DNA from: Acaryochloris marina MBIC11017
GTDB taxonomy: Bacteria; Cyanobacteriota; Cyanobacteriia; Thermosynechococcales; Thermosynechococcaceae
Reading direction: 5' to 3'
Length of the DNA stretch: 32,000 nt
NCBI RefSeq assembly: GCF_000018105.1
Contig: NC_009925.1
Coordinates: 3,090,001 to 3,122,000, forward strand
Shown one piece after another: positions 999 through 26,821 of the stretch. The stretch's first letter is position 1; the number at the start of each line of letters is the position of its first letter. The position numbers and the translations under genes were made by a program. Under the pieces are notes generated by a model that saw nothing but the letters and a program-made list of their open reading frames with translations, did not search any database and was not told the DNA's origin.

Positions 999-1334
999 AT
1001 GGACACGTCTCCACAGGAAATTCGCCTATATCTGCGACCAGACGGTAGCTGTCCCTTTGCGCAGTGGCTAGAAGGTTTGCGAGATCGGCGTGCAAGAGCC
1101 AAAATCAGGCAGAGCTTAGATAGGATTGAGCTGGGCAATATGGGTGACTTCAAGCCTGTCGGCAAAGGCGTCTTGGAGGCTAGAATTAAGTACGGCCCAG
1201 GATATAGAGTTTATTTTGCTCGTGCAGGTCGGCAAGTTGTCTTGCTGTTGTGTGGCGGAGACAAAAAGACGCAGAATAAGGATATCCTCAGAGCACAGCA
1301 GTATTGGATGGACTTTCAAAAGTACAAAAAATAG
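999..1334 (+). CDS. Type II toxin-antitoxin system toxin, RelE/ParE superfamily (addiction module killer type).
   Basis: 111 aa. The N-terminus reads YLRPDGSCPFAQWLEGL. It carries GNMGDFKPVGKGVLEARIKYGPGYRVYFA and LLLCGGDKKTQNKDILRAQQYW. These match the conserved blocks I remember for this killer-protein family. Confidence 0.85.
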   Translation: MDTSPQEIRLYLRPDGSCPFAQWLEGLRDRRARAKIRQSLDRIELGNMGDFKPVGKGVLEARIKYGPGYRVYFARAGRQVVLLLCGGDKKTQNKDILRAQQYWMDFQKYKK

Positions 1335-3625: not shown

Positions 3626-3642
3626 ATGATAATGATTATCAT
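3626..3642. promoter_or_regulatory. FUR-family operator, Zur-box type.
   Basis: ATGATAAT-G-ATTATCAT is a perfect 8-1-8 inverted repeat. It contains the 7-1-7 core TGATAAT-N-ATTATCA that I recall as the cyanobacterial Zur operator. It lies about 195 nt upstream of the COG0523 gene. Confidence 0.7.
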
Positions 3643-3837: not shown

Positions 3838-4875
3838 ATGATTCAATCTCCCACTCAACAAGCCTCACCCCAAACCGATCTGAAACTTCCCAAACGAGGG
3901 TTGCCCGTGACAATTATTACGGGCTTCCTTGGCAGTGGGAAGACCACACTGCTCAACCATATTCTCCAAGACTGCCAGGATCTAAAAGTCGCGGTGTTGG
4001 TCAATGAGTTTGGCGATATCGATATTGATAGCCAGCTCTTGGTTTCTGTTGAAGAAGATATGGTACAGCTCAGTAATGGCTGTATCTGCTGCACCATCAA
4101 CGACGACTTGGTGGAAGCGGTCTACAGCATTTTGGAGCGGAACGAGAAGGTGGATCACTTGGTGATCGAAACAACGGGGGTGGCCGATCCATTGCCCATA
4201 GCACTCACGTTTGCGATGCCGCCCCTACGGAATTTAACCCAGCTAGATTCCATCGTCACGCTAGTGGATGCAGAAGCCTTCTCCCCCCAACATTTTGAGA
4301 GTGAAGCCGCCCTTAATCAAGTGTCCTATGCCGATATTATTGTGCTTAATAAAACGGACTTAGCTGCCCCTCAACAGGTAGATACGTTGGAGGCATGGGT
4401 TCGAGAGCAGAAATGGGGGGCACGAATTTTGCGATCGCAAAACAGCAACATCCCCCTGCCATTGATTTTAGATACCAATCTCTTTCAGCCAGAGCGCTAT
4501 ACCGCAGAAGCAAAAGCAATGGCTGAGACGACGCATGATCACCATGCCCCTCACTGCCACGACCACCACCATCACTCCAACCATCTCGTCAATGATGGGT
4601 TTGTATCGATGGCATTCGAAAGCGATCAACCGTTTGATTTGGACAAATTTCAAGATTGGCTCGCCGATGATCTGTCAGAAAACGTCTTCCGAGCTAAGGG
4701 ATTCCTATGGTTTGGCACCATTACCCCCCGCTATATCTTCCAGCTCAGCGGCAAACGCTACACCTTAGACGCAGACAAGTGGCCTGGAATACCCAAGACA
4801 CAGCTCGTCCTGATTGGTCGCGAGTTAGATGCCCCAAAACTACAGCATCAGCTTCGAGACTGTTTAACCTCTTAG
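3838..4875 (+). CDS. COG0523/CobW-family G3E GTPase (putative zinc metallochaperone).
   Basis: Walker A is GFLGSGKTTLLNHIL. The metal-binding CxCC motif is GCICCT. NKTD is present. There is a His-rich stretch THDHHAPHCHDHHHHSNH, and the CobW C-terminal domain is present. Confidence 0.9.
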   Translation: MIQSPTQQASPQTDLKLPKRGLPVTIITGFLGSGKTTLLNHILQDCQDLKVAVLVNEFGDIDIDSQLLVSVEEDMVQLSNGCICCTINDDLVEAVYSILERNEKVDHLVIETTGVADPLPIALTFAMPPLRNLTQLDSIVTLVDAEAFSPQHFESEAALNQVSYADIIVLNKTDLAAPQQVDTLEAWVREQKWGARILRSQNSNIPLPLILDTNLFQPERYTAEAKAMAETTHDHHAPHCHDHHHHSNHLVNDGFVSMAFESDQPFDLDKFQDWLADDLSENVFRAKGFLWFGTITPRYIFQLSGKRYTLDADKWPGIPKTQLVLIGRELDAPKLQHQLRDCLTS

Positions 4876-5095: not shown

Positions 5096-6161
<1,066 letters not shown>

Positions 6162-10199: not shown

Positions 10200-11068
10200 T
10201 GAATCTCTAAATCCTTGAGTTGAAGACTTTACCAATCAGTATTCCTGAATTTTACAACCCCACTGGATGCCCCTACGAGATGGGGTGAGAGGAGAGAGTG
10301 ATACGGCGCTCAATTGCACCTCACAGAATTTAGACTGTGAGTTGAAGGTTTCTAGCAGCATCTACTCAGGAAACATCGCCAAAGTCCATCTGTACATCTC
10401 CATATTGGGTCATTCGAGCTTCAACACGATTCAACGGTTGATCATTGAGAGCATACAGAACCAGCACTCCCCGCTGACGGAATTACCAAGGGACTTTCTT
10501 GGCTGCCAGCCATACTGTTCTCCGAGCAAGTAAATGGCTGCGGTCAAACAGAGCGGTAAGCAAGGGTAGTTCTAAAGCTGAGATGGTTTCGACACAGCGA
10601 CAATAATTCTTGTCTCGCTGATTAGTCAGAACAATGATAGGAAAAGGGTAAAGAGATATTTGTAAGAAATTTGACCTCGATTTCGTGAGGCCATAGGGAT
10701 CGGCGAATGAGTAGACTACCCCATAAAACCTTCAGAAATCTATGTCTTTTAAATCACCAATATATTACTCTTAATTAAATTCTTATTTGTTACAAAATCG
10801 TACACATTTAGTAACCATTCACGATACAAAAAATCAAGATAGATATATGGCTTTCAAAAATTTATTCGAAAGCACTTGCCAAAATCGACACTTTTGTTTT
10901 CGTTATTCCTTGTTTTCTTCTTCCTAAATCAAGATTAATTCCTTTAATCCTAAATTATTTTTTTCTTAAACTCAACTTTTTTTATTCTTAAAGTTAGAAT
11001 GAAACCCTGAGTTTGGGAAAGATTTTCAAGTTGATTATCTTTTGAGATTCCAACCTGTAAATCTCATT

Positions 11069-11103
11069 GAGAATGCTTCTGCAGATTAAGCTTCAGCATT
11101 CTC
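11069..11103 (+). other. Hairpin with a 9-bp stem (GAGAATGCT ... AGCATTCTC) followed by CTTTTCT, inside the AT-rich non-coding region.
   Basis: The inverted repeat was read directly. The 17-nt loop contains the CTGCAG and AAGCTT palindromes. It could be a terminator or attenuator-like element, or part of an RNA. Confidence 0.35.
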
Positions 11104-11256
11104 CTTTTCTAAGACTTATTTTTTATGTTGATACATTAAATAATTTCACCGTACATATTGGTGTTTTGTGGGGATCATCTCAAAGTGTATGTGTCAAAAT
11201 TTTTAGTTAAGGACGTCAGCCTCTTCAATTCAAAAGAGTCTTAATAAAGCCTGCTG

Positions 11257-11280
11257 ATTCACAGTGTTTTTACTGTGAAT
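11257..11280. other. Perfect 9-bp inverted repeat ATTCACAGT-gttttt-ACTGTGAAT.
   Basis: Read directly. A third TTCACAG copy follows at about 11289-11296. It is a candidate protein-binding site or RNA hairpin about 280 nt upstream of the giant gene. Confidence 0.35.
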
Positions 11281-11554
11281 TTCCTGCTTTTCACAGCATG
11301 TATGTCAGCCAGTAGTGAGTTAAACCATTTAACTACTGAGCAATTTTTAAGGTGTTTGATAAATTTACACTTTTATTGATAAAGACTGTTGTCAAAAAAT
11401 TATTCATTTATTAACTTTCCGATGGCTACTCCTTAACCTAAATAAGAAATTATTTCACATATAAATATTCGCTGTCGGCATTTTCTTCTGGACTAGGATT
11501 TCTATGTCCAGAGCTAATACAGCAGCTAATGAATTAATTTCTGAGGTTTAGTTC

Positions 11555-14500
11555 ATGACAAGTAACGTCATTTTTATTCATCCTGATGGAGCAGACCCAT
11601 CACATTTTGCTGCTGCCCGGTTCAAATCTGTTGGCCCAGATGGTCGTCTGAACTGGGATGAAGCACCTGCAGCAGGCGTCTATCTAGGACACTTAGACGA
11701 TAGCGTGGTCGCCACATCTAATGGAGGTGCGGTCGTCCATGCTTATGGAATCAAGTCTGTTGCCCCCAGCTATGGCTTTGATGAAAACGGGATTGCATAT
11801 CAATCCCTTGCTGCTCTTCAAGGTCAGAATGTTGCGGGTTCAGCTCCAGACGCAACGGTTCTACAAGAAGCGATTGCAGCAGGTCGCCCAACGGCTGTGA
11901 TTAACTCAGGTTTCATTGCCGAACCCGGTACGGGCGTATTCCTAGCTGATGCAGAAAGTCGACGCGATCGCGAAGGTATTACTGCTCAGATTGTTGAATC
12001 CGGTGTCAACGTGATCATGGCTGCGGGTGAAATTGATTATCTTCCTGTTGGCACTGTTGGATTCTTCGGTGAAGAAGGAACCCGAACAGATGGCCGTAAC
12101 CTGATTGAGGAAGCCGAAGCTTTGGGCTATACCGTTGTGTATACCCGTGAGCAATTGGAAAGTCTGCCTGCAGACACCGAGCGCGTGTTGGGTGTTTTTG
12201 CTGCTGATGATACCTATAACGATGTTCCTGAAGGGCAGCTAATTCAAGACGGTTTTGTGGATGATAATGGTGAACTGATTACCTATGGTCAGCCACCTCT
12301 CAATCCAAATCCGCCTACTGTGGCTGAGATGCTGGAAGCAACGCTCAAGCTCGATTTATTTAGCCAAGAAGAAGACGGATTCTTTATCGTTCTTGAAGAA
12401 GAAGGAACCGATAACTTTGGCAACAACAACAATGCTCGGGGGACGATTGATGCCACCCTCAGAGCCGATGCTGCTATTGGGGTTGCAAGGGATTTTATTG
12501 ATAACGTCAACTCCAATACCTTTGTTGTCACCGCCGCAGATAGTGCGGGTGGGGCTTTAGAAATTGATGATGTTTCGGGTCCAACAGTAGGAACCACCAC
12601 GACCCAACGGCAGTTGAATGCAGCCGGAGAAAACAGTGGCATTACAGTACCTTTAGATGGCACAACGGGCAGCGACACTGCACCATTTGTGAGCGCACCG
12701 GATAGAAATGGTAACAGCTATGAATTCGGTGTTGCTTGGGCCGGTTTACCAGACTTTGCGGGGAGCATTGTTTCAAAAGCCTACGGCGAAGGGGCAGACC
12801 GTTTACCTGCAACCCTCGATAACACAACGATTTATCGACTGATCTACGAAAGTCTCTTTGATGTTCGTCTAGATGCACCAGAGGGTGTGCCCGATGATCT
12901 GGCTCCTCGTGAAGCCCCTGAACCCACTGCCGATACTGGCAATGTCATTTTTATTCACCCAGACGGGACCAGCCCTTCCCACTACGCAGCAGCACGGTTC
13001 TCATCCTTGGGGACTGATGGCCGTCTCAATTGGGACCAGATGAGCAATGCAGGGGTCTATTTAGGCCATATTGATGATCGTCTTGTTTCCACGTCTAATG
13101 CAGGAGCGGTTGTTCATGCTTACGGTGTAAAACCCTTTGCAGGTAGCTATGGGTTTGATGCACCTGTTGACGAAGGGGGCCAAGAAATCGTTGCCCTTTC
13201 CGGTCAGAATGCCACCATTGCCCAAGAGGCCCAGGCTGCTGGTAAAGCCGTCGGCATCATCAACTCTGGATTTATTGCTGAGCCAGGCACAGGCGTTTTT
13301 CTAGCTGATGTAGACAACCGGGGTGAGACAGAGGCCATTACAGCTGAAATTCTGGATCAGCGACCAGATGTGATTCTCGGGGCAGGTGAAACGGATTATT
13401 TGCCCGTTGGTACAGTCGGTTTTTTCGGGGAAGAAGGAACCCGAACTGATGGCCGCAACCTAATTGAAGAAGCCGAAGCAGCAGGGTATGAAGTTGTTTT
13501 CACCCGTGACGAACTGTTAGAAGTTGACACTGAAAATACGGATCGCTTGCTAGGTATTTTTGCAGCAGAAGACACCTATAACGACTTTTTCGAAGATGAG
13601 CTGCGTCGAGATGGTTTTGTCGACGAAAATGGCGATCTGATTCTGTATGGTCAGCCCCCTCTCAACCCCAATCCACCGACTGTGGCTGAGATGCTAGAGG
13701 TGGCACTGCCCATTCTCAACCGTGACCCAGATGGTTTCTTTTTGGCCTTGGAAGAGGAAGGAACAGACAATTTCGGTAATGATAACAATGCTGCTGGTAC
13801 TATCGAAGCTGCTCTCCGTGCCGATGAGGCTATCGGTGTTGCCCTTGATTTCGTCGACAATATTGATCCCAACACATTAGTCATCACAGCTGCAGATTCT
13901 GATGCAGGTGGCTTAGAAGTCGACGATGTCCCGATTAGTGGCTTTGGCTTAGATCCAGCCGATCCAGCTGCAGGGTTTACACTAAGAACTCAAGCTGAAT
14001 TGGCCGCTTTTGGCGATGACGCTGACGGAACGCTTGTTCAGGTTGATGATATTGACGGCAGCAATGACGTACCTGGCTTCAGTACCGATATTTTCGAAGC
14101 TTTCACCACAGGCGCTCCCGATGCCGATGGTGACGTGTTTGACTTCGGTGTTGCTTGGGCCACTCGCTCTGATGTCAATGGTGGCATCGTCTCCAAAACC
14201 TATGGTCTAAATGCTGACCTATTACCTGCCACAACAGACAATACTGATATCTATCGCGTCATGTATCAGACCCTGTTTGGTGTTGCTCCTGAAGCCGCAG
14301 GTAACAGCGAGTTAGAAGGATTTGCGTCTCTCCCCGCCGACACCTTTGCTGAGGGACCTCCTGCAGGTGGCGACAATGGTAATGGCGGCCCCATCGATGC
14401 CAACGGTCGCACGGGTCCTTTTGAGGGTCAACCCGTCCAAGGTTTTAGTGGTGTACAGTTTGCAGACAGCGATGGTAGTTTCTGGTTCTTGTCTGACAAT

Positions 14501-17200
14501 GGCTTTGGGGCTAAAACCAATAGCTCTGATTATTTACTGCGACTCTACAAAGTTGACCCCAGCTTTGCAGGTTCAGAAGGTGGTGATGGATCGGTTGAGG
14601 TCGAAGACTTTATTCAACTCTCTGATCCCAATAACCTCATCCCTTTTGAGATTCAGAATGAAGGTACGACTGAGCGTCAGCTCACCGGATCTGATTTCGA
14701 TATTGAGTCCTTTGTCATTGATGGCAATGGCGACATTTGGGTGGGTGAAGAATTTGGCCCTTACCTCCTGCACTTCAATAGCGATGGTGAGTTAATCGAA
14801 GCCCCCACTGCTACACCCAACCCAGTAGAACTGAATACCCTCAACGGCCAAGATCCCATCGTAATTGGACACCGGGGTGCCAGCGGTATTTTGCCAGAGC
14901 ACACACTAGAGGCCTATGCCACAGCCATCGCCCAAGGAGCTGACTTTATTGAGCCTGACTTGGTGATCACCAAAGATGGTGTCCTGATTGCTCGCCATGA
15001 GCCGCTGCTAGATGACACCACCAACGTCGCCGATGTTTTCGGTCCTGAGCGGATGTCGACCAAAATGTTGGATGGGGTAGAAACCACTGGCTACTTCGCC
15101 GAAGACTTCACCTTAGAAGAAATCAAAATGCTGCGAGCCGTGCAGTCTCGTGATTTTAGATCGCAGGATTTCAACGGCGCTTTCGAGATTCCCACCCTCA
15201 AAGAAGTGATTGAGCTGGTCCAGGAAGTCGAAGCCGACACTGGAACAGTGGTTGGCATTTATCCCGAAACCAAGCACCCCACCTTCTTTGATTTACAGGA
15301 TCTGTCCCTGGAAGAGCCACTTATTGCGACCTTCCAGGAAACAGGCTTTACGGATCCTAGCCGTCTATTTATCCAGTCCTTCGAGTTTCAGAACTTAATT
15401 GAACTCCAAGGCATGTTAGATGCAGAAGGTTTAGGCGATATTCCCCTAGTCCAGCTCTATGGCAATACCACTGCGAGTGCCAGTCCTGATTCTGGATTTT
15501 CTGTGCCCTACGATATTCGCTACAACGTTGAACAAGGCAACGACTTAGCAGCCATTTATGGGCAAGACTTCTTAGATGCAGCAGAAAACGCGCCGTCCGA
15601 AAACACCATTTACAGTGATTTAGACAATCCTGAAATTCTCCAAATTATTAGCGAGAAATATGCCGAAGGTGCTGGCCCTTGGAAAAATAATTTCTTACTG
15701 CGAGAAGCCCTTGATACTCCTGTAGATGGGGATGGCGACGGCAATGCTGAAATCACCACCCAACTGACCGGGGAAGTGACCTCTTTTGTGGATGATGCCC
15801 ACGCCGCTGGATTACAGGTTCATCCCTATACCCTGCGGAATGAAGAGCGGTTTCTAACCCTCAATGCCGATGGCACTCCACAAACCCCTAAGGAGGAAAT
15901 TAAGCAGCTGATTGACATTGGGGTAGATGGGTTCTTCACCGATTTTCCAGGGACCGGAGACGCAGTTCGAGATCAAATCGTGGCCGATGTGGTACGCTCA
16001 CCCGATAATCCTGATGTGTTGACAGGGGATGAGGTTTCTAACCTACCTCGCTCGCGCGGATTCGAAGGAATGGCCATCAGCCCCGATCGGATGACCCTCT
16101 ATCCCATGTTGGAGGGCACCGTCGAAGGCGATCCAGAAGGTTCCCTCAGAATTTATGAATTCGACGTAGAATCCAGCGAATATCAAGGCCTAGTCGGTCG
16201 CTATCAGCTAGATGACCCCAGCCATGCCATTGGTGATTTCACAGTCATTAACGAGAACGAATATCTGGTGATTGAGCGGGATGGTAATCAAGGAGATGAA
16301 GCTGCCTTCAAGAAAATCTTCAAGGTGGATTTGTCTCAATTGGATGACGAAGGGTTTGTGATGAAGGAAGAACTGGTTGATCTTCTGAGCATCAATGATC
16401 CGAATGATTTGAATGGAGATGGAGAGACAACTTTCAACTTTCCTTTCGTCACCATCGAAGATGTCCTGGTCATTGACGAAGATACTCTATTGGTTGCCAA
16501 TGACAACAACTATCCTTTCTCTATTGGTCGCGGACCTGACATCGATAACAACGAAATCATTCAGATCAAGCTCAACGAACCACTCGACCTGGATCCACGG
16601 GTTGGCTTAGCCGGTCTTGATGGTGGTGATAGCGATTCTGATGGTGAAGGTAATTCTGATGGTGAAGGCAGCGGCGATTCTTCCAGTGACGATAGCCAAG
16701 GCAGTCGCGGAATAGACGTCCTTTCGGGTGGTCCCACTGATGATGATCTTAGCGGTGGTCGTGGCGATGACACTATCACAGGTGGTCTCGGTGATGACAA
16801 CCTCATGGGAGGTCGGGGTAACGATCTCCTAGAAGGTGGTCAAGGTGACGACGATCTGTTTGGAGGACGGGGTCTAGATACGCTGAACGGTAACGAGGGT
16901 AGCGATATCCTAGTGGGTGGTCGAGGAGATGACCTACTGACGGGAGGCTCAGGTGAAGACCTATTCGCCCTCGCTGCAAGTGACGGCACCGACACCATCA
17001 CAGATTTCCTTATTGGCGAAGATGTCGTTGGTCTAATCGGTGGCTTGTCCTTCGAGCAATTAGAAATTGTTCAAGGAACTGGAACGCAAACCGCAGACAC
17101 TCTGATCTCCGTGGCAGAGACTGATGAACTCTTGGCTGTTTTAAGTGGAGTCCAAGCGACTACCCTCACTGACTCAGCCTTTGAAACATTCGTCGTCTAG
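11555..17200 (+). CDS. Giant secreted multi-domain phosphoesterase: 2x alkaline-phosphatase-like + phytase-like/GDPD + RTX calcium-binding repeats.
   Basis: 1881 aa with no N-terminal signal peptide.
- Two homologous AP-like modules occupy nt 11555-12870 and 12938-14290. Each has NVIFIHPDG, (A/S)TSN(G/A)GAVVHAYG, EEEGTDNFGN and TAADS.
- Phytase-like esterase motifs lie at 14308-14810 (FSGVQFADSDGSFWFLSDNGFG; DIESFVIDGNGDIWVGEEFGP) and at 16041-16600 (RGFEGMAISPD; LVANDNNYPF).
- The GDPD domain lies at 14858-15960 (VIGHRGASGILPEHTLEAY...GADFIEPDLVITKDGVLIARHE).
- A D/S/G linker is followed by GGxGxD nonapeptide repeats at 16727-16970.
- The protein ends in a short C-terminal tail. Confidence 0.9.
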   Translation: MTSNVIFIHPDGADPSHFAAARFKSVGPDGRLNWDEAPAAGVYLGHLDDSVVATSNGGAVVHAYGIKSVAPSYGFDENGIAYQSLAALQGQNVAGSAPDATVLQEAIAAGRPTAVINSGFIAEPGTGVFLADAESRRDREGITAQIVESGVNVIMAAGEIDYLPVGTVGFFGEEGTRTDGRNLIEEAEALGYTVVYTREQLESLPADTERVLGVFAADDTYNDVPEGQLIQDGFVDDNGELITYGQPPLNPNPPTVAEMLEATLKLDLFSQEEDGFFIVLEEEGTDNFGNNNNARGTIDATLRADAAIGVARDFIDNVNSNTFVVTAADSAGGALEIDDVSGPTVGTTTTQRQLNAAGENSGITVPLDGTTGSDTAPFVSAPDRNGNSYEFGVAWAGLPDFAGSIVSKAYGEGADRLPATLDNTTIYRLIYESLFDVRLDAPEGVPDDLAPREAPEPTADTGNVIFIHPDGTSPSHYAAARFSSLGTDGRLNWDQMSNAGVYLGHIDDRLVSTSNAGAVVHAYGVKPFAGSYGFDAPVDEGGQEIVALSGQNATIAQEAQAAGKAVGIINSGFIAEPGTGVFLADVDNRGETEAITAEILDQRPDVILGAGETDYLPVGTVGFFGEEGTRTDGRNLIEEAEAAGYEVVFTRDELLEVDTENTDRLLGIFAAEDTYNDFFEDELRRDGFVDENGDLILYGQPPLNPNPPTVAEMLEVALPILNRDPDGFFLALEEEGTDNFGNDNNAAGTIEAALRADEAIGVALDFVDNIDPNTLVITAADSDAGGLEVDDVPISGFGLDPADPAAGFTLRTQAELAAFGDDADGTLVQVDDIDGSNDVPGFSTDIFEAFTTGAPDADGDVFDFGVAWATRSDVNGGIVSKTYGLNADLLPATTDNTDIYRVMYQTLFGVAPEAAGNSELEGFASLPADTFAEGPPAGGDNGNGGPIDANGRTGPFEGQPVQGFSGVQFADSDGSFWFLSDNGFGAKTNSSDYLLRLYKVDPSFAGSEGGDGSVEVEDFIQLSDPNNLIPFEIQNEGTTERQLTGSDFDIESFVIDGNGDIWVGEEFGPYLLHFNSDGELIEAPTATPNPVELNTLNGQDPIVIGHRGASGILPEHTLEAYATAIAQGADFIEPDLVITKDGVLIARHEPLLDDTTNVADVFGPERMSTKMLDGVETTGYFAEDFTLEEIKMLRAVQSRDFRSQDFNGAFEIPTLKEVIELVQEVEADTGTVVGIYPETKHPTFFDLQDLSLEEPLIATFQETGFTDPSRLFIQSFEFQNLIELQGMLDAEGLGDIPLVQLYGNTTASASPDSGFSVPYDIRYNVEQGNDLAAIYGQDFLDAAENAPSENTIYSDLDNPEILQIISEKYAEGAGPWKNNFLLREALDTPVDGDGDGNAEITTQLTGEVTSFVDDAHAAGLQVHPYTLRNEERFLTLNADGTPQTPKEEIKQLIDIGVDGFFTDFPGTGDAVRDQIVADVVRSPDNPDVLTGDEVSNLPRSRGFEGMAISPDRMTLYPMLEGTVEGDPEGSLRIYEFDVESSEYQGLVGRYQLDDPSHAIGDFTVINENEYLVIERDGNQGDEAAFKKIFKVDLSQLDDEGFVMKEELVDLLSINDPNDLNGDGETTFNFPFVTIEDVLVIDEDTLLVANDNNYPFSIGRGPDIDNNEIIQIKLNEPLDLDPRVGLAGLDGGDSDSDGEGNSDGEGSGDSSSDDSQGSRGIDVLSGGPTDDDLSGGRGDDTITGGLGDDNLMGGRGNDLLEGGQGDDDLFGGRGLDTLNGNEGSDILVGGRGDDLLTGGSGEDLFALAASDGTDTITDFLIGEDVVGLIGGLSFEQLEIVQGTGTQTADTLISVAETDELLAVLSGVQATTLTDSAFETFVV

Positions 17201-17539: not shown

Positions 17540-17863
17540 TTAGCGAATATGAAATGCACCATTAGGACCACGCTGAATCACCTGTAGCGTTTTTGATGAT
17601 TGAGCAGCATTTTGGCGAATTTCCCGAGGTTGAGCAATCTGCGCTGCACCATGAGAGCCACGAGTAACAATATTGGGAAAACCTTTTGCAGGAGTGTTAG
17701 GCCGGACTTGAGCATCATGGGGAATGCGGTCGACCTTGACTTGGCGAGCTGCACCATGAGGACCGCGAGTAACAGTAACAGTTTCAGCAGTAGCGGGGGA
17801 AACAAAGCCTAGACTGAAGACTGTTAAACCTGCCAAGACAGCGACTTGATTGTTGCGTTTCAT
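17540..17863 (-). CDS. Small secreted protein with three RG(P/S)(H/N)GA repeats (107 aa from the ATG at 17863).
   Basis: The sequence from the internal ATG is MKRNNQVAVLAGLTVFSLGFVSPATA/ETV, a clear Sec signal peptide with an AxA site. The mature part has TVTRGPHGAARQV, IVTRGSHGAAQIA and VIQRGPNGAFHIR. The track start at 17998 is a TTG that would add 45 non-signal residues. Confidence 0.6.
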   Translation of the reverse strand: MKRNNQVAVLAGLTVFSLGFVSPATAETVTVTRGPHGAARQVKVDRIPHDAQVRPNTPAKGFPNIVTRGSHGAAQIAQPREIRQNAAQSSKTLQVIQRGPNGAFHIR

Positions 17864-18008
17864 TGTTTGCGCTCCAACTTCGATGACTTCAATGTACGAG
17901 GAGTATCTGAAGCTGGAATGATGGCGATCTGGGTGAGTCCCTGTAATTGGCTGAACAGACCATAAGGGATTAATGAGAATCCTGAGAGGTTCACTCAACC
18001 CACGATGA

Positions 18009-18842
18009 TTACCAGGATGTGACCAATACCTCCGTAATCTTGCCGCGCTTTTGGGGGTTAGAGTTGATGGCCCGAGCCGCTTGAATCGAGTAAATGTTGA
18101 ACGACTGGTAAAGGTCGCGGATAAACGAGCAATCTGAGTTAGACAGCATCACCTGTACGCCTCGACTTGCTAATTCAGCAAACACCTGAGCCAATTTCGT
18201 TTGATCTTTCGCCGTAAACGCACCTTTTGAATAGGCTGTAAAATCGCTTGTAGCGCTGATGGGATGATAGGGCGGATCGAAATAGACAAAATCCTGGGCT
18301 GATTGGGCCACCTCCAAAATCGTTTCAAACGGCTGCTGGTGGATCTGAACGGCTTGGAGAACTTCAGAAACCGCTTTCAGGAGCACTACATCACAAATTT
18401 TGGGTTTCTTGTATCGGCCCATAGGCACATTGAACTGTCCTTTGGAGTTTTCTCGATACAGACCATTGAAACAGGTGCGATTGAGATAAATAAATCGAGC
18501 GGCACGTTCAGCGGGTAAGGATGGATTGAGAGCTCGAATTTGGTAGTAGTAGTCATGACCATGCTGGCAGGCATGCGTCTCCAGATATTTCAAGACGTCA
18601 TCTATCCGATCGCGAACACAGGTATAAACATTGACCAGTTCAGGATTCACATCAGAAAGAACTGCCTGCTCCGGCTGTAAATGGAAAAAGATAGCACCAC
18701 CGCCTAAGAACGGCTCATAGTAAGCACCAAAGTTCTGAGGGAAATGCGGACCATATTGAGTGATTAATCGACCTTTGCCCCCTGCCCATTTCAGAAACGG
18801 ACGGGCAGGAACTCGCGCCTGAGTCGGCAATGGACTAGTCAT
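18009..18842 (-). CDS. dam: DNA adenine methyltransferase, Dam/D12 class (GATC type likely).
   Basis: RPFLKWAGGKGRL is the motif-I region. FVYFDPPY is the DPPY catalytic motif. Also present are YYEPFLGGGAIFF and NRTCFNGLYR. I prefer the ATG at 18842 (277 aa) over the upstream TTG at 18914. Confidence 0.9.
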   Translation of the reverse strand: MTSPLPTQARVPARPFLKWAGGKGRLITQYGPHFPQNFGAYYEPFLGGGAIFFHLQPEQAVLSDVNPELVNVYTCVRDRIDDVLKYLETHACQHGHDYYYQIRALNPSLPAERAARFIYLNRTCFNGLYRENSKGQFNVPMGRYKKPKICDVVLLKAVSEVLQAVQIHQQPFETILEVAQSAQDFVYFDPPYHPISATSDFTAYSKGAFTAKDQTKLAQVFAELASRGVQVMLSNSDCSFIRDLYQSFNIYSIQAARAINSNPQKRGKITEVLVTSW

Positions 18843-18937
18843 GGACGGGCAACCCCACAATGTAGAAGGTAAAGGCTTTGGGTTAAGATCAATCCTGTGA
18901 ATCAGAGAAATCAATAATATATATCGACTAAATCACT

Positions 18938-21488: not shown

Positions 21489-24401
21489 ATGGGTTTATTG
21501 CAAGGTTTTTGGAATTTTCTGAGTACAGATGTTCGAGATTTTCCATGGGGGGAAGTTGCTCAACAAGGAATTGAAGCAGTCAAAACAACCTCTGAAGTTG
21601 GAAAAGCGATTAAAGAACAGGCACCGCATATCAAGCAACTGAAGCCGCATCTCAAGCAGATTGAACCCTTTTTAGAAACCATCAATTCACCTATTACCCA
21701 ATTGGCCGTATCGGGATTGCCCTTTTTGTCGATAGGGATTAGTTTTGTCAAAATTTATCTCTCCCTATCTAAGGAAGAGCCATCTTTTGAAAGCTCTGTT
21801 GTTCTCGTTTCCCAGCTTGCCTACTTACAGAGCTTAGAAGAGGTGATCAAAGGAAATCATGATGAAGAGACCCAAAAAAAGTTAGAAAAAATTTGGTTAC
21901 AGAAGCTTGTAAAAAGACAGTTGAATAAGATAACTGCCCAAGAGCTGAGTCAGTCTGAGGCGAAAGCAGCCACCAGTCGGTTTCCAGAATCTAGCTTGGC
22001 ACAACAATTCAACAGCGTATTACAAGAACAACTAGACCAAATAGAACTAGATAGCACCTTGAGTCAGCGGTTTGTCAACCAGGTGTGTTGGGGAACCCAT
22101 CAGTTTTTGCATCAGGCCATTGCTGAAGCGGGTGACGAGGTTAGTGTCCTTGCTGATGTTTATCGGACCGGCGGAAAAGCCATACAAGATAGATATGACA
22201 GCATCAACACTTATTTACAAGAACATATTCAACCCCTACCACATGAACAAGTCTTCGATGAAACAGAACCACGGATTACCTTTCTAGATCTCTATGTGTC
22301 TTTGGATGTGCAGCCGTTAGACCAATCAGGTGATCCAACTGGTCAACAACCAATCAATATTCATAAATGGGCTAAAAATATTCTCGACTCTAACGATGAG
22401 CAACGCAAGCTAATGTTTATTGAGGGAGAGGCAGGTCGAGGGAAATCAGTTTTTTGCCGAATGTTTGCAGATCTCGTACGGCAAGACTATCAGTTTTCGT
22501 TTGTACCCATTCTAATTCGTCTGCGGCGTTTACAAGTATTGAAAAATAATTTGACTGAGACCCTGGAAGATTCTCCAGAGTTAGAACAGGTAAGGTTTAT
22601 TCGAGGTAACAATGCGTGGTTAGCAGACCCCAATACCAGGTTTTTAATTATTTTGGATGGTTTTGATGAGTTACTACTGGAAGGTCGTGATAGTGGCGGG
22701 TTAAAAGAATTTTTGCAGCAGGTTGCAGCTTTCCAAAATGAAAGTAATCATCAATGTTTGATTACTGGACGCCCTTTAGCACTTCAGGGGATTGCTCAGT
22801 TGATCACTCAGACCAAAAATTTACAACGGGTCAAAATTCAGCCCATGAACGATCACCTGCGTAGTGATTGGCTAGGAAAATGGAGGAGAAAATTTGGCAA
22901 TCAAGAAGTCACTGAATTTGAAAATTTTTTAGCAGCATGTCCTGAAGAAATTCACAACAATTTAGCACGCGAACCACTCGTCCTATATCTATTAGCTCGA
23001 CTGCACCGAGAAGGTCGATTGCAATCAGCGATGTTCGCAAAAGCCGAGGGTATTGCCGCAAAACTCTGCATCTACCGAGAGTCTATCAAGTGGGTCTTGG
23101 AAAAACAGCGCGATGACGAAAATATTAGGTTAGCAGGTGTAGAAGATCTTGAAGATCTACACGATGTTCTGAAAGAGGCAGCGTTGTGTGTTGTGCAGTC
23201 GGGTAACGAAACTGCCAAGCTCTCCATGGTCAAGCAACGATTTAAGAATACGTCTAACCCTGTTGCCGAGATTTTAAAGCAGGCTGAAGATACGACAAAA
23301 ACATCTGAAGATAAAGTCCTCAATAATTTATTGACCACGTTTTATATCAAGCCGGGAGAAGGAGACAAGCGAGGATCCGTTGAATTTGCCCATAAGAGTT
23401 TTGGTGAATTCTTATTTGCCGAAAGACTACAGTCAGCAATTGAAGATTGGACCCGCTTAGATCATAGGGGTCGACGATTTGTTTTGGATGATCGTCAATT
23501 CCATGAACAACTCTATGATTTGTTGGGATATGGCGGATTGAGTGTTGAGATCGTTGATTATTTAATGGAACTGCTCAAGACCAGCAATCAGTATCAGCCT
23601 ATTCCACTCTTCCAACGTCTACATGAGTTCTATTTAAATTGGTGTGAGGGTGAATTTATAGACAGTTCACCAGCAGAAAATTTGCCCCAAAAAAAATTTT
23701 TACAGCTACAGTCCGTTAATATTAATTCTGGTCTGCGCCAGGTCGATGTCTTTACTGGACTTAATGTATTAATTTTATTGCTGAGGTTGCACTCAGATAA
23801 TCAACAGAAACCCAAAAGTGAAGCATGTGACGAGCTGATTTTCTATCCTTGCGGCAAAAGAGAGTCTACTGACTTTAAGACTCACAGATTTCTTCAGATT
23901 CTTCAGTATTCAGATTGTTTAGGCCCTGGTACATTTACCCGTCTAATCGGTTCTCATAGCCGATATGCCAACCTCTCCGATACCTACCTCTCCGGTACCT
24001 ACCTCTCCAATGCCAACCTCTCCAGTGCCAACCTCGACGGTGCCAACCTCGACGGTGCCTACCTCGACGGTACCAACCTCTCCGGTGCCAACCTCTCCGG
24101 TGCCTACTTCGACGGTGCCTACCTCGACGGTGCCAACCTCTCCAATGCCAACCTCTCCAATGCCTACCTCTCCGGTGCCTACCTCGACGTTGCCAACCTC
24201 TCCGGTGCCAACCTCTCCGGTGCCAACCTCTCCGGTGCCAACCTCTCCGGTGCCAACCTCTCCGGTGCCAACCTCTCCGGTGCCTACCTCTCCGGTGCCT
24301 ACCTCGACGGTGCCAACCTCTCCGGTGCCTACCTCGACGGTGCCAACCTCTCCGGTGCCAACCTCTCCGGTGCGATTATGCCTCAAGGCTTTACTAGTTG
24401 A
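21489..24401 (+). CDS. STAND/NACHT-family NTPase with an unrecognised N-terminal domain and C-terminal pentapeptide repeats.
   Basis: 970 aa. Walker A is FIEGEAGRGKSVF (about nt 22426-22449). Walker B is FLIILDGFDELL (about nt 22644-22670). The NACHT-associated block is HKSFGEFLFAERL. The last ~135 aa are A(N/Y)L(S/D)(G/N) pentapeptides. The first ~300 aa are helical, with one hydrophobic segment ITQLAVSGLPFLSIGISFVKIYLSL, and match no family I recognise. Confidence 0.88.
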   Translation: MGLLQGFWNFLSTDVRDFPWGEVAQQGIEAVKTTSEVGKAIKEQAPHIKQLKPHLKQIEPFLETINSPITQLAVSGLPFLSIGISFVKIYLSLSKEEPSFESSVVLVSQLAYLQSLEEVIKGNHDEETQKKLEKIWLQKLVKRQLNKITAQELSQSEAKAATSRFPESSLAQQFNSVLQEQLDQIELDSTLSQRFVNQVCWGTHQFLHQAIAEAGDEVSVLADVYRTGGKAIQDRYDSINTYLQEHIQPLPHEQVFDETEPRITFLDLYVSLDVQPLDQSGDPTGQQPINIHKWAKNILDSNDEQRKLMFIEGEAGRGKSVFCRMFADLVRQDYQFSFVPILIRLRRLQVLKNNLTETLEDSPELEQVRFIRGNNAWLADPNTRFLIILDGFDELLLEGRDSGGLKEFLQQVAAFQNESNHQCLITGRPLALQGIAQLITQTKNLQRVKIQPMNDHLRSDWLGKWRRKFGNQEVTEFENFLAACPEEIHNNLAREPLVLYLLARLHREGRLQSAMFAKAEGIAAKLCIYRESIKWVLEKQRDDENIRLAGVEDLEDLHDVLKEAALCVVQSGNETAKLSMVKQRFKNTSNPVAEILKQAEDTTKTSEDKVLNNLLTTFYIKPGEGDKRGSVEFAHKSFGEFLFAERLQSAIEDWTRLDHRGRRFVLDDRQFHEQLYDLLGYGGLSVEIVDYLMELLKTSNQYQPIPLFQRLHEFYLNWCEGEFIDSSPAENLPQKKFLQLQSVNINSGLRQVDVFTGLNVLILLLRLHSDNQQKPKSEACDELIFYPCGKRESTDFKTHRFLQILQYSDCLGPGTFTRLIGSHSRYANLSDTYLSGTYLSNANLSSANLDGANLDGAYLDGTNLSGANLSGAYFDGAYLDGANLSNANLSNAYLSGAYLDVANLSGANLSGANLSGANLSGANLSGANLSGAYLSGAYLDGANLSGAYLDGANLSGANLSGAIMPQGFTS
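23967..24371 (+). repeat. 27 tandem 15-bp units encoding the pentapeptide repeats. Six consecutive units are identical at 24192-24281.
   Basis: The units are gccaacctctccggt / gcctacctcgacggt and mixtures of the two. Variation is confined to a few positions. All frames on both strands are open across the array, which produces artefactual ORFs. Confidence 0.95.
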
Positions 24402-24548: not shown

Positions 24549-25010
24549 CTAAGCAATATCCATTGGCGGAGAAGGTTGATTTTGTCTCAGGGCTGTCTGA
24601 ATTAACTGTTGTAGCTCATAACGAGTAATTTCTTCTCCCTGATCCAAATCACCCATCGTCTCCAAAAAGAGAATGCTATCCACAGGCTCCAACGCCAACA
24701 GCTGAAACAACAGCGGAATCACTGGCACTGGCAACGCCACCAAATCTGCTGACCGACTGGACCGAGTTGCATCCTGCAAATTGGCAAAGGCATAGACCAC
24801 CGTCTTTTCCAACCCCGGCTTTTGCCGATGCTGCAAGGTCGTTAACTGCCAATTTCCCTGCAAATTTTGCAGAATATAGTACTCCTCAAACTTCAAACGC
24901 TGCTCTGCCAACTCTTGCAGCAACGGCGCAATAATTCGAATCGCAGCAGGCATCCCACCGTCTTGCGGCGCTTCATCAATCAGTGCTTGCACCTGCGGCT
25001 GCAAATTCAT
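24549..25010 (-). CDS. Hypothetical protein (153 aa from the ATG at 25010), apparently co-transcribed with ilvB.
   Basis: MNLQPQVQALIDEAPQDGGMPAAIRIIAPLL... I recognise no family. The ATG lies 2 nt after the ilvB TAA (25013-25015). The track start at 25031 would overlap ilvB. Confidence 0.55.
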   Translation of the reverse strand: MNLQPQVQALIDEAPQDGGMPAAIRIIAPLLQELAEQRLKFEEYYILQNLQGNWQLTTLQHRQKPGLEKTVVYAFANLQDATRSSRSADLVALPVPVIPLLFQLLALEPVDSILFLETMGDLDQGEEITRYELQQLIQTALRQNQPSPPMDIA

Positions 25011-25012
25011 GC

Positions 25013-26821
25013 TTACAACTTTGTCCCGCACTCAGGGCAAAAGTGATTTGTTGAGGTATTTTTGGCCCCGCAGTTACTGCAATAAATCAGCTCTGCTGCC
25101 TTTTCTAAGGTTTTCTGATCCGGCAACCCTAGCATTTGGGCATTGCTCTTACCCGGTGCCACCATGGGATAGCAGTTTTCATCCCGCGTCACCTGGGCAT
25201 CTAACAGATAGGGACCATCAAACGCTAACATCTCAGCAATGACACTTTCGAGATCATTTCGCTCCCGCAAAATGCCACCCTTGACGCCAAATGCTTCCGC
25301 CAATTTCTCAAAATTAGGCATCCCGGCTTCCATACTGGAGTTGGAATAGCGCTCGCCAAAAAAGGCTTGCTGCCACTGGCGCACCATCCCTTGCCAGAAA
25401 TTATTGATAATGACCGTTTTGACCTTGATACCGTATTGGGCTAGGGTAGCCAACTCCTGCAAATTCATTTGGAAGCTGGCATCACCACTGATACAGATCA
25501 CTTGATGATCGGGTAATGCCACCTGTACCCCCATCGCCGCCGGTAAACCATAGCCCATGGTTCCCAGACCACCACTCGTCACCCACTGGCGAGGACCATT
25601 CTTCAGGAACTGAGCCGCCCACATTTGGTGCTGTCCGACATCTGTTGTGTAGTAGGCATGGGGTGCCTGTCGTTGCAGCTCCACAATCACCTCTTGGGGC
25701 GACAGCTTTGTGTCTGGTCTAGGCACCATCAATGGATAATCTCGCTGCCAACGTTCTACCCGAGAGCGCCACTCTTGTGTCTGGGCTGTATCAGGCGGTG
25801 AAGACTGTTTTGCTATTTTCAGCAGTTCCACTAAGACAGGCTTCACGCTACCCACAATCGGCACCGTCGGGGCACGATTTTTGCCCACTTCCGCTGGGTC
25901 AATATCGATATGAATCACTTTTGCCCTAGAGGCAAATTCATCAAGCTTACCCGTCACCCGATCATCAAAGCGGGCACCCACGGCAATCAGCAGATCACAT
26001 TCACTAACGGCAAAATTGGCATAGGCGGTGCCGTGCATACCCAACATCCCCACGGATAAGGGATGGGCCTCATCAAAGGAGCCTTTGCCCATCAGCGTTG
26101 TGGTTACCGGAATATGGAACCACTCAGCCAGCTCTTTCAGTTCAGCATGGGCTCCCGACGAAATGGCTCCACCACCTACATATAAGAGGGGAGATTTAGC
26201 CTGTCGAATGAGATCTAGGGCTTGTTTAATCTGACGCGGATTGCCTTTGACCGTGGGGCGATAGCCCTTTAAGCTAATGGTCCCTGGCTGCACAGGAGTA
26301 TAGTCAAACTCTTGAAGGCCTACGTCCTTGGGCACATCAATTAAAACGGGTCCTGGTCTACCGGTACCAGCAATATGGAAGGCTTCCGCCACAACCCGAG
26401 CCATATCCGCCGGATCACGCACCACATAGGAATGTTTCACCAGGGGCAGCGTAATCCCAAAAATATCGGTTTCTTGGAACGCATCACTGCCAATATTGGT
26501 CCGAGGCACCTGCCCCGTAATCACCACCATCGGAATTGAATCCATATGAGCGGTGGCAATTCCGGTCACCAAGTTGGTTGCCCCAGGACCGGAGGTCCCA
26601 AAGCAGATGCCGACCTGCCCCGTTGCTCTAGCATAGCCATCAGCAGCATGGGATGCACCTTGTTCATGGCGGACCAAAATATGTTTGAGATCGCCCCGCT
26701 GTTCTGCCTTATACACCTCATCATAAATCGGCAAAATCGCACCACCGGGATAGCCAAAAATATGTTTGACGCCGTGATTTTTTAGACTATCGATTAACGC
26801 AAAAGCTCCGGTTGCACGCAC
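25013..26821 (-). CDS. ilvB: Acetolactate synthase (AHAS) large subunit with a C-terminal zinc-ribbon-like tail.
   Basis: The N-terminus is [30 protein letters not shown]. The ThDP motif region is [15 protein letters not shown]...[13 protein letters not shown] start. The last 24 aa are [24 protein letters not shown] (CxxC-x10-CxxC). Confidence 0.95.

Follow-up and report, generated by a model that had tools for sequence, protein, structure and literature searches.

Classical alkaline phosphatases (APs) of the PhoA type, such as those of E. coli (1ALK) and Vibrio (3E2D), are obligate homodimers which are exported by the Sec pathway, and they are the textbook reason for expecting zinc-phosphorus co-limitation in marine phytoplankton. 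The same zinc-phosphorus link is drawn in a review of zinc homeostasis (PMC3323870). Extracellular phosphate release without zinc has also been described for marine cyanobacteria (PMC11098088). Further systems to be compared are the periplasmic glycerophosphodiester phosphodiesterases (GDPDs) of the GlpQ type (1T8Q/1YDY, and H. influenzae protein D, 8CWP) and the RTX exoenzymes, among them serralysin-type proteases, Pseudomonas lipases and the PueA/B esterases, which have no N-terminal signal but carry a block of GGxGxD repeats and an uncleaved, hydrophobic-ended tail of about 80 residues. Here we compare with these systems the product of AM1_3076, a gene located in a 32-kb stretch of DNA from Acaryochloris marina MBIC11017; this whole stretch is called the window in the following.

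The open reading frame (ORF) starts with an ATG at 11555, ends with the stop codon at 17198-17200 and comprises 1881 codons. Its product is 100% identical to A. marina AM1_3076 (ABW28072.1, UniProt B0CDK3). An earlier reading of the same DNA, below called the original prediction, had described a chain of four hydrolase modules from three families which ends in RTX repeats, and that layout is confirmed by Pfam, with which the complete protein as well as six separate pieces were scanned (PF00245 twice, PF03009, PF13449 and PF00353). We read AM1_3076 as an extracellular phosphorus-scavenging enzyme, a fusion of two units that also occur separately in related cyanobacteria, and assign to this reading a probability of roughly 60%. 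The most unusual feature, which the original prediction had missed, is the active site of the two AP modules, which in our alignments is left without any canonical zinc-binding histidine. It is this strictly conserved histidine-free metal site that lifts AM1_3076 above an ordinary multidomain exoenzyme; the architecture itself is common.

That the N-terminal modules belong to a phosphatase family is well supported by profile searches. Both of them match the phosphatase family PF00245, with an E-value of 3e-70 for the whole protein and with 98 and 148 bits for the single modules. The Pfam matches span aa 4-332 and aa 463-798, while the modules themselves reach to about residues 445 and 915, respectively. 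The two modules are mutually 60% identical, and their identity to solved APs amounts to 20-23%. An AlphaFold2 model of the two-module segment (aa 1-935) has a pLDDT of 87.7 and a pTM of 0.90, and Foldseek matches this model to E. coli AP with a TM of 0.66 (target-normalised) and an E-value of 1e-23. Judged by profile and model together, the assignment of both modules to the AP fold is secure.

The active site was mapped by aligning the family profile to Vibrio AP and by a MAFFT alignment with six classical APs, and conservation was assessed in 228 modules from 119 family proteins. Besides fold and family, the predicted sites of module 1 and module 2 (residues given in this order) share with classical PhoA the equivalents of Asp51 (D11/D470), of the nucleophile Ser102 (S55/S514), of the phosphate-binding Arg166 (R136/R589), and of Glu322 (E281/E733), Asp327 (D286/D738) and Asp369 (D329/D781). 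PhoA Asp153 is conservatively changed to glutamate (E123/E576). Lys328 is replaced by asparagine (N287/N739), and the histidines His331, His370 and His412 are replaced by asparagine (N290/N742), serine (S330/S782) and aspartate (D400/D873), respectively. The mapped residues are invariant in the 228 modules, except for S330, which is found in 227 of them, whereas the classical APs from the same searches and alignment carry histidine at all three changed columns. At the Zn1 site D286, N290 and D400 are found in place of the classical Asp327, His331 and His412, and at the Zn2 site D11, D329 and S330 stand for Asp51, Asp369 and His370. Of the third-metal site, which classically comprises Asp51, Asp153 or His153, Thr155 and Glu322, D11, E123 and E281 are invariant, and the Thr155 column is occupied by G125, with T126 adjoining. 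The D-S-A motif around the classical nucleophile reads T-S-N in AM1_3076. A map drawn by eye from the single sequence, in which Arg166 was replaced by serine and His412 by glycine, was overturned by the profile and multiple alignments (R136 and D400).

The exchange of the three histidines for asparagine, serine and aspartate gives an all-oxygen ligand set, which would favour calcium or magnesium over zinc. O-donor ligand sets bind calcium or magnesium elsewhere in the AP superfamily, for example in the arylsulfatases. It could be argued that the modules are active with zinc or another transition metal all the same, in a site rebuilt from the clade-specific invariant histidines H9, H46 and H62, and that no zinc is spared. 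H9 shares a strand with the metal ligand D11, which follows it by two residues, and H62 belongs to the helix beginning at the nucleophile; in comparison to PhoA both are new, and at the columns of all three histidines the classical APs are hydrophobic. On the other hand, six of the classical ligand positions are now taken by O-donors (D, D, S, D, N, D), and both RTX repeats and GlpQ-type GDPDs are calcium-dependent by family. Neither point is decisive, and we consider a rebuilt zinc site unlikely.

As an enzyme using calcium or magnesium, AM1_3076 may be a functional analog of the calcium-dependent APs PhoX, PhoD and Psip1, the proposed analogy being extracellular phosphate release free of zinc. 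These enzymes use iron and calcium and have unrelated folds (propeller or metallophosphatase-like), whereas AM1_3076 has the PhoA fold. Kinship to PhoAaty or Psip1 was ruled out, as these families are unrelated to PF00245 (PMC11098088).

All three zinc histidines as well as Lys328 are replaced, and no assay of any clade member was found in the open-access literature. Both facts would also suit AP modules that are inactive pseudo-enzymes with a binding or scaffold function, in which case only the GDPD, and perhaps the propeller described below, would be active. Pseudo-enzymes, however, usually lose the nucleophile and drift, while Ser55, Arg136, Asp11, Glu281, Asp286 and Asp329 are invariant in the 228 modules, and N290, S330 and D400 are equally kept. 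The site is preserved in both tandem positions and also in distant single-domain secreted relatives. Furthermore, many proteins consist of nothing but the AP pair and an export tail, which would make little sense for a pure scaffold. That the AP modules are inactive is therefore quite improbable, and we continue with the reading that they are phosphatases.

Tandem AP pairs are present in 112 of the 119 proteins, whatever the fused domains or their order. The closest counterpart of a module in another protein sits at the same position in 216 of 227 cases. Modules 1 and 2 are thus separately orthologous, which points to an old duplication of which both copies were kept with a complete site. Where PhoA is a homodimer with Sec export, AM1_3076 has two fused modules, no Sec signal and an RTX tail. 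Because classical PhoA dimerizes obligatorily, because the model of the pair reaches a pTM of 0.90 and because pairing is obligate in this family, the two modules probably pack as an intramolecular pseudo-dimer which takes the place of the PhoA homodimer.

In an exhaustive search with module 1 against 1.84 billion cluster representatives, 109 representatives were found at E <= 1e-30. The full-length single-module representatives comprise about 430-480 aa and are mostly metagenomic, with one named Latescibacteria. These single-module relatives share the signature, and they carry Sec or lipoprotein signal peptides which stop immediately in front of the VIFxHPDG strand. In species-representative genomes, a scan for the motif revealed at least 597 stretches that encode such modules; cyanobacteria account for all of the best 80. 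Going by these searches, the histidine-free PF00245 clade is large and conserved. The more far-reaching reading, according to which the PF00245 modules represent a large clade of PhoA fold that uses calcium or magnesium and not zinc, and which in cyanobacteria forms an obligate tandem pseudo-dimer exported by means of RTX tails, is put forward tentatively and at somewhat less than even odds.

The GDPD of AM1_3076 can be aligned over its full length to E. coli GlpQ (1T8Q/1YDY; E about 1e-35, 30% identity), and the motifs HRGASG..PEHT, IEPDL, ARHE and YPETK, which stand for the catalytic His, Arg, Glu, Asp, His, Glu and Lys pattern, are in register with 1T8Q. The AlphaFold2 model of aa 936-1700 (pLDDT 82, pTM 0.78) matches GlpQ structures with a Foldseek TM of 0.79. 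Common to this domain and to periplasmic GlpQ, including protein D, are the catalytic and the calcium-binding motifs and the TIM barrel together with its insertion. Unlike GlpQ, the domain is not free-standing but sits in a loop of a beta-propeller, and it has extra loops of about 60 residues. We call it GlpQ-type and not a GlpQ ortholog because its score of 172-176 bits lies below the cut-off of 254 of the NCBIfam GlpQ equivalog NF008354.

The surrounding propeller belongs to PF13449, a family named 'esterase-like activity of phytase'. Its Pfam match is clear but comes in two halves, since aa 959-1091 correspond to profile positions 1-110 and aa 1487-1653 to positions 117-284; together both halves cover the model. 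Between them lies the PF03009 match, which extends from aa 1106 to about aa 1470 (E 2e-46). The GDPD is therefore nested inside the propeller and not placed beside it, and the propeller is split by an enzyme domain of 377 residues. In the AlphaFold2 model the propeller is mostly beta-strand. The composite is colinear in about 45 relatives, and in one relative (P0025) the GDPD is reduced to a remnant inside an intact propeller.

The original prediction had seen a phytase-like domain here, with phytate-like substrates as a possibility. The Pfam family name speaks for a phytase, but the searches do not uphold this view. The Pfam scans gave no match to PF02333 (beta-propeller phytase) but only to PF13449, and a propeller-only profile compared with solved structures found no phytase and no credible nearest structure. 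With the combined propeller/GDPD model Foldseek returned 63 matches at E <= 0.001. The top 50 of these are of the GDPD type, save two glucanase entries and a phage spike bearing a GP-PDE domain, and neither a phytase nor a match to the propeller is among them. The coordinates of all modules are given in Table 1.

Table 1. AM1_3076, its modules and associated features in the window.
Feature	Position	Strand	Evidence or remark
COG0523 GTPase gene	3838-4875		
hemB (porphobilinogen synthase)	5127-6161	+	Mg-type motif instead of cysteine-rich zinc motif
AT-rich intergenic leader	10534..11554	+	1,021 bp, 33% G+C
Whole ORF, 1881 aa and stop	11555..17200	+	AM1_3076 of Acaryochloris marina MBIC11017
AP-fold module 1 (aa 1-445)	11555..12889	+	PF00245, alignments to solved and classical APs, AlphaFold2, Foldseek; predicted site D11, S55, E123, R136, E281, D286, N287, N290, D329, S330, D400
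Pro/Glu/Ala-rich linker between AP modules (aa 446-460)	12890..12934	+	low pLDDT
AP-fold module 2 (aa 461-915)	12935..14299	+	PF00245, position orthologous across proteins; predicted site D470, S514, E576, R589, E733, D738, N739, N742, D781, S782, D873
PF13449 'phytase-like' beta-propeller, N-terminal part (aa 936-1093)	14360..14833	+	Pfam; AlphaFold2 strands, lower confidence at the start
GlpQ-type GDPD within the propeller (aa 1094-1470)	14834..15964	+	PF03009, GlpQ alignment, Foldseek
PF13449 propeller, C-terminal part (aa 1471-1684)	15965..16606	+	Pfam
Acidic Gly/Ser/Asp-rich linker (aa 1685-1718)	16607..16708	+	very low pLDDT at the model end
RTX block with nine GGxGxD nonapeptides, of which eight are canonical and one is degenerate (aa 1719-1803)	16709..16963	+	PF00353
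C-terminal domain, ...ITDF..GEDV.GL...LAVL.G....F.TFVV (78 aa, 1804-1881)	16964..17197	+	presumed type I secretion signal

An N-terminal signal peptide is missing from AM1_3076, as had been noted before. The catalytic Asp11 is already located at residue 11, and an in-frame TAG (11549-11551) lies two codons 5' of the ATG, so that an N-terminal extension is impossible and the start is fixed. A Shine-Dalgarno-like GAGG motif is found about 8 nt ahead of the ATG. All complete cyanobacterial members likewise start with M-x(2-5)-VIFIHPDG and lack a signal peptide. Most of them end, whatever their architecture, in RTX-like repeats and a conserved domain with the pattern '...ITDF..G.D.IG...LA.L.G....F.F'. 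In AM1_3076 the PF00353 match consists of four stretches within aa 1725-1805, the canonical GGxGxD repeats as found by a regular expression lie within aa 1734-1802, and sub-threshold NCBIfam matches point to the tails of RTX toxins, serralysin and PueAB.

With RTX repeats and a conserved C-terminal domain at its end and no N-terminal signal, the protein is most likely exported by type I secretion, in agreement with the original prediction, which had preferred this route to Sec. AM1_3076 resembles the RTX exoenzymes in its repeat block and tail and differs from them in its phosphoesterase cargo and in having no ABC or membrane fusion protein (MFP) genes nearby. As the single-module relatives carry Sec or lipoprotein signals and the cyanobacterial forms RTX tails, the clade appears to be extracytoplasmic in general, and the cyanobacteria would have swapped the Sec signal for a C-terminal RTX-type export module.

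Among the cyanobacterial RTX proteins, some belong to the surface layer. AM1_3076 might in the same way stay on the cell surface after export, associated with the S-layer or the outer membrane, instead of being freely released, and holding the released phosphate close to the cell would be advantageous. The sequence, however, holds nothing that separates released from retained proteins, and no anchoring domain was found in the Pfam scans. Retention on the surface is a possible but doubtful variant of the extracellular enzyme proposed here.

Crocosphaera subtropica ATCC 51142 encodes a classical AP of 755 aa (L002 16798-19065) with the motifs DSA, D-W-x-x-H and DHDH and without a signal peptide. 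This protein bears the same RTX-like C-terminal export domain, and its gene adjoins that of the histidine-free giant homologue. Both metal types are therefore found in one phosphorus island.

About 45 of the 120 best matches to AM1_3076 share the set of AP pair and propeller/GDPD unit, including the C. subtropica protein. Proteins of the same architecture are automatically annotated as 'alkaline phosphatase' or 'GDPD'. In the open-access literature, locus-tag and accession searches found no mention of AM1_3076, of its accessions or of four homologues, and a characterisation in a subscription journal may still exist. The original prediction had not recognised the combination as a described enzyme. 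This holds in so far as we found no characterisation, but the architecture is not rare.

Both units are also found separately. AP-AP-RTX proteins without propeller and GDPD (P0030, P0034 and P0036) show 87-88% identity, and proteins with only the propeller/GDPD unit and RTX repeats show 80-87% identity, with more than 3000 matches at E <= 1e-20. Both orders of the AP pair and the propeller/GDPD unit occur among the relatives, and still other proteins of the family contain PhoX-like, nuclease-like or 5'-nucleotidase domains in addition. Because the AP-AP-RTX and the propeller/GDPD-RTX units exist as separate proteins, AM1_3076 is by its composition one product of a frequent shuffling of secreted phosphoesterase units and not a unique invention. 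A protein of 981 aa from Acaryochloris sp. CCMEE 5410 (P0303) matches aa 903-1881 of AM1_3076 with 98% identity. Its called start is an internal methionine in the last helix of AP module 2 (MYQTLFGVAPE...); this strain may have a frameshifted or split gene, or the gene call may be wrong.

Giant phosphoesterases are also encoded beside some of the relatives. Directly upstream of the A. thomasi orthologue lies a gene for an RTX protein of 2439 aa (L001 1690-9009). Choice-of-anchor-I, phytase-like, Exo_endo_phos (nuclease-like) and 5'-nucleotidase C domains were identified in this protein, which by its domains would be a second one-chain cascade, leading from nucleic acid through nucleotide to phosphate. 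In C. subtropica the neighbours comprise a PhoD/phytase giant, the classical RTX-tailed AP and a metallophosphoesterase. The Halothece homologue has no giant phosphoesterases beside it, nor the zinc cluster described below. In the A. marina window, a thiamine pyrophosphate (TPP) enzyme with a C-terminal zinc ribbon (25013-26821, minus strand) is followed by a small Pfam-less ORF (24549-25031, minus strand), 8 kb downstream of AM1_3076. The same pair is found directly downstream of the tandem-AP gene of Halothece PCC 7418 (L003 13735-16276), and may be residual synteny.

In the mechanism that we propose, AM1_3076 would leave the cell through a type I secretion system which recognises the C-terminal domain, and calcium bound outside the cell would make its RTX repeats fold. 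The intact motifs of the GlpQ-type GDPD suggest that it cleaves glycerophosphodiesters, the deacylated head groups of phospholipids, to glycerol-3-phosphate and the alcohol. The two AP modules, again going by their intact motifs, would then hydrolyse glycerol-3-phosphate and other monoesters and thereby set free phosphate. The recurrent fusion of AP and GDPD fits such a functional link because the product of GlpQ-type enzymes, glycerol-3-phosphate, is a phosphomonoester and thus an AP substrate. As the GDPD step would feed the AP step, the fusion would keep both steps of the pathway together outside the cell. For the propeller around the GDPD, a role as another calcium-dependent esterase, as a substrate-binding domain or as a scaffold is conceivable. 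The function originally proposed, that is extracellular release of phosphate by these hydrolases, thus appears largely sound.

Trichodesmium has a GDPD, perhaps of another family than AM1_3076, whose expression rises under phosphorus stress (PMC6411698), and APs as well as a phytase-like protein are present in Synechococcus exoproteomes (PMC4949707). Phosphorus regulation of AM1_3076 is plausible from this literature on related enzymes and from the gene context of the relatives. We also looked at the long AT-rich leader which the original prediction had pointed out. A leader of similar length, also with 33% G+C, precedes the A. thomasi orthologue, but footprinting found no alignable sequence between the two (best shared word 11 nt, E 0.19). 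A riboswitch or leader RNA was rejected, as no Rfam match to the leader was obtained at E <= 1. Promoter-like sites are about as frequent as chance would have it (5 versus 4.5 expected), and 3 terminator-like sites were found where 0.8 +/- 1.0 are expected. Pho boxes were modelled as three tandem YTTAAYYW units with 11-bp spacing (cyanobacterial SphR/PhoB). The best triple, at 10943-10972 with 4/24 mismatches, is the sole one of its kind in the window, but when the AT-rich leader is shuffled, 39 of 500 shuffles reach it, and the site is weak and not significant. The long AT-rich leader itself is confirmed, and it recurs in A. thomasi.

Several points weigh against AM1_3076 being the scavenging enzyme described here, or against parts of this reading. 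No experiment was found on any member of the AP clade, so that phosphomonoesterase activity and metal are both deduced from sequence. The sub-cut-off score of the GDPD means that its substrate range may differ from that of GlpQ. The geometry proposed for the pseudo-dimer is derived from pTM and pairing, and the invariant H9, H46 and H62 may leave room for a rebuilt zinc site. No type I secretion genes are encoded in the 32-kb window, and no cognate ABC, MFP or outer-membrane genes recur beside the homologues (81 loci). With respect to phosphorus regulation, the insignificance of the Pho box has to be added.

Upstream of AM1_3076 lies a zinc cluster which comprises genes for a COG0523/ZigA-like GTPase (AM1_3070, PMC3323870), hemB, znuA, znuC, znuB and a DmeF-like cation diffusion facilitator (CDF) gene. 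By its metal-binding motif (Table 1), hemB looks like a zinc-independent paralogue under Zur control. The palindrome TGATAATNATTATCA, which we take to be the Zur-box consensus of the Anabaena Zur sites, is perfect at 3627-3641, upstream of the COG0523 GTPase gene, and is found with one mismatch at 5097-5111, 30 nt upstream of hemB. In the whole window there are 7 matches with up to 3 mismatches versus 2.1 expected. The cluster is a credible zinc-limitation unit.

AM1_3076 is located only 1.3 kb from this cluster of COG0523 GTPase, Mg-type hemB, znuABC and CDF genes with its Zur-box palindromes, and a histidine-free AP site fits the theme of zinc limitation. The gene might thus belong to the adjacent Zur regulon and encode a zinc-sparing substitute for PhoA which is induced by zinc starvation. 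However, the 1-kb leader (10534-11554) contains no Zur-box match with up to 3 mismatches, for which reason Zur control of AM1_3076 was rejected, and a convergent CDF gene on the other strand stands between the cluster and AM1_3076. A. thomasi, Crocosphaera and Halothece do not have this neighbourhood, and the clustering of ORFs from 81 loci revealed no partner gene in more than 10 loci. Instead, relatives sit among phosphorus-scavenging genes. Membership in the Zur regulon is very improbable, and of the adjacency stressed in the original prediction the cluster itself is real, while neither a regulatory nor an evolutionary link to AM1_3076 was found.

Some further genes of the window may be mentioned. 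Directly downstream of AM1_3076, on the minus strand (17540-18914), a Dam-type N6-adenine DNA methyltransferase of 301 aa is followed by an ORF of 152 aa without Pfam or NCBIfam match. A NACHT NTPase of 970 aa with an NNH3 N-terminal domain and C-terminal pentapeptide repeats is encoded at 21489-24401 on the plus strand; this stretch has 40-42% G+C compared to about 50% around it, and may be horizontally acquired. An ORF of 111 aa at 999-1334 (plus strand) encodes a Gp49-like protein (HigB-type toxin).

Many cyanobacterial PF00245 proteins lack the three zinc histidines, while nucleophile, Arg166 and acidic ligands are strictly conserved. Surveys count phoA by the Pfam model (e.g., methods of PMC11098088). 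If the histidine-free proteins are indeed calcium or magnesium enzymes, such Pfam-based counts would not imply a zinc requirement for much of the cyanobacterial phosphate scavenging, and using organic phosphorus would cost benthic and coastal cyanobacteria less zinc than has been inferred. Should the modules be zinc-dependent after all, the finding would shrink to an ordinary, though large, secreted phosphatase. With calcium or magnesium in the AP sites, AM1_3076 would be a calcium-only cascade on one polypeptide which leads from glycerophosphodiester to phosphate. The fusion of AP and GDPD would represent a simple case of a two-step extracellular pathway in one secreted chain.

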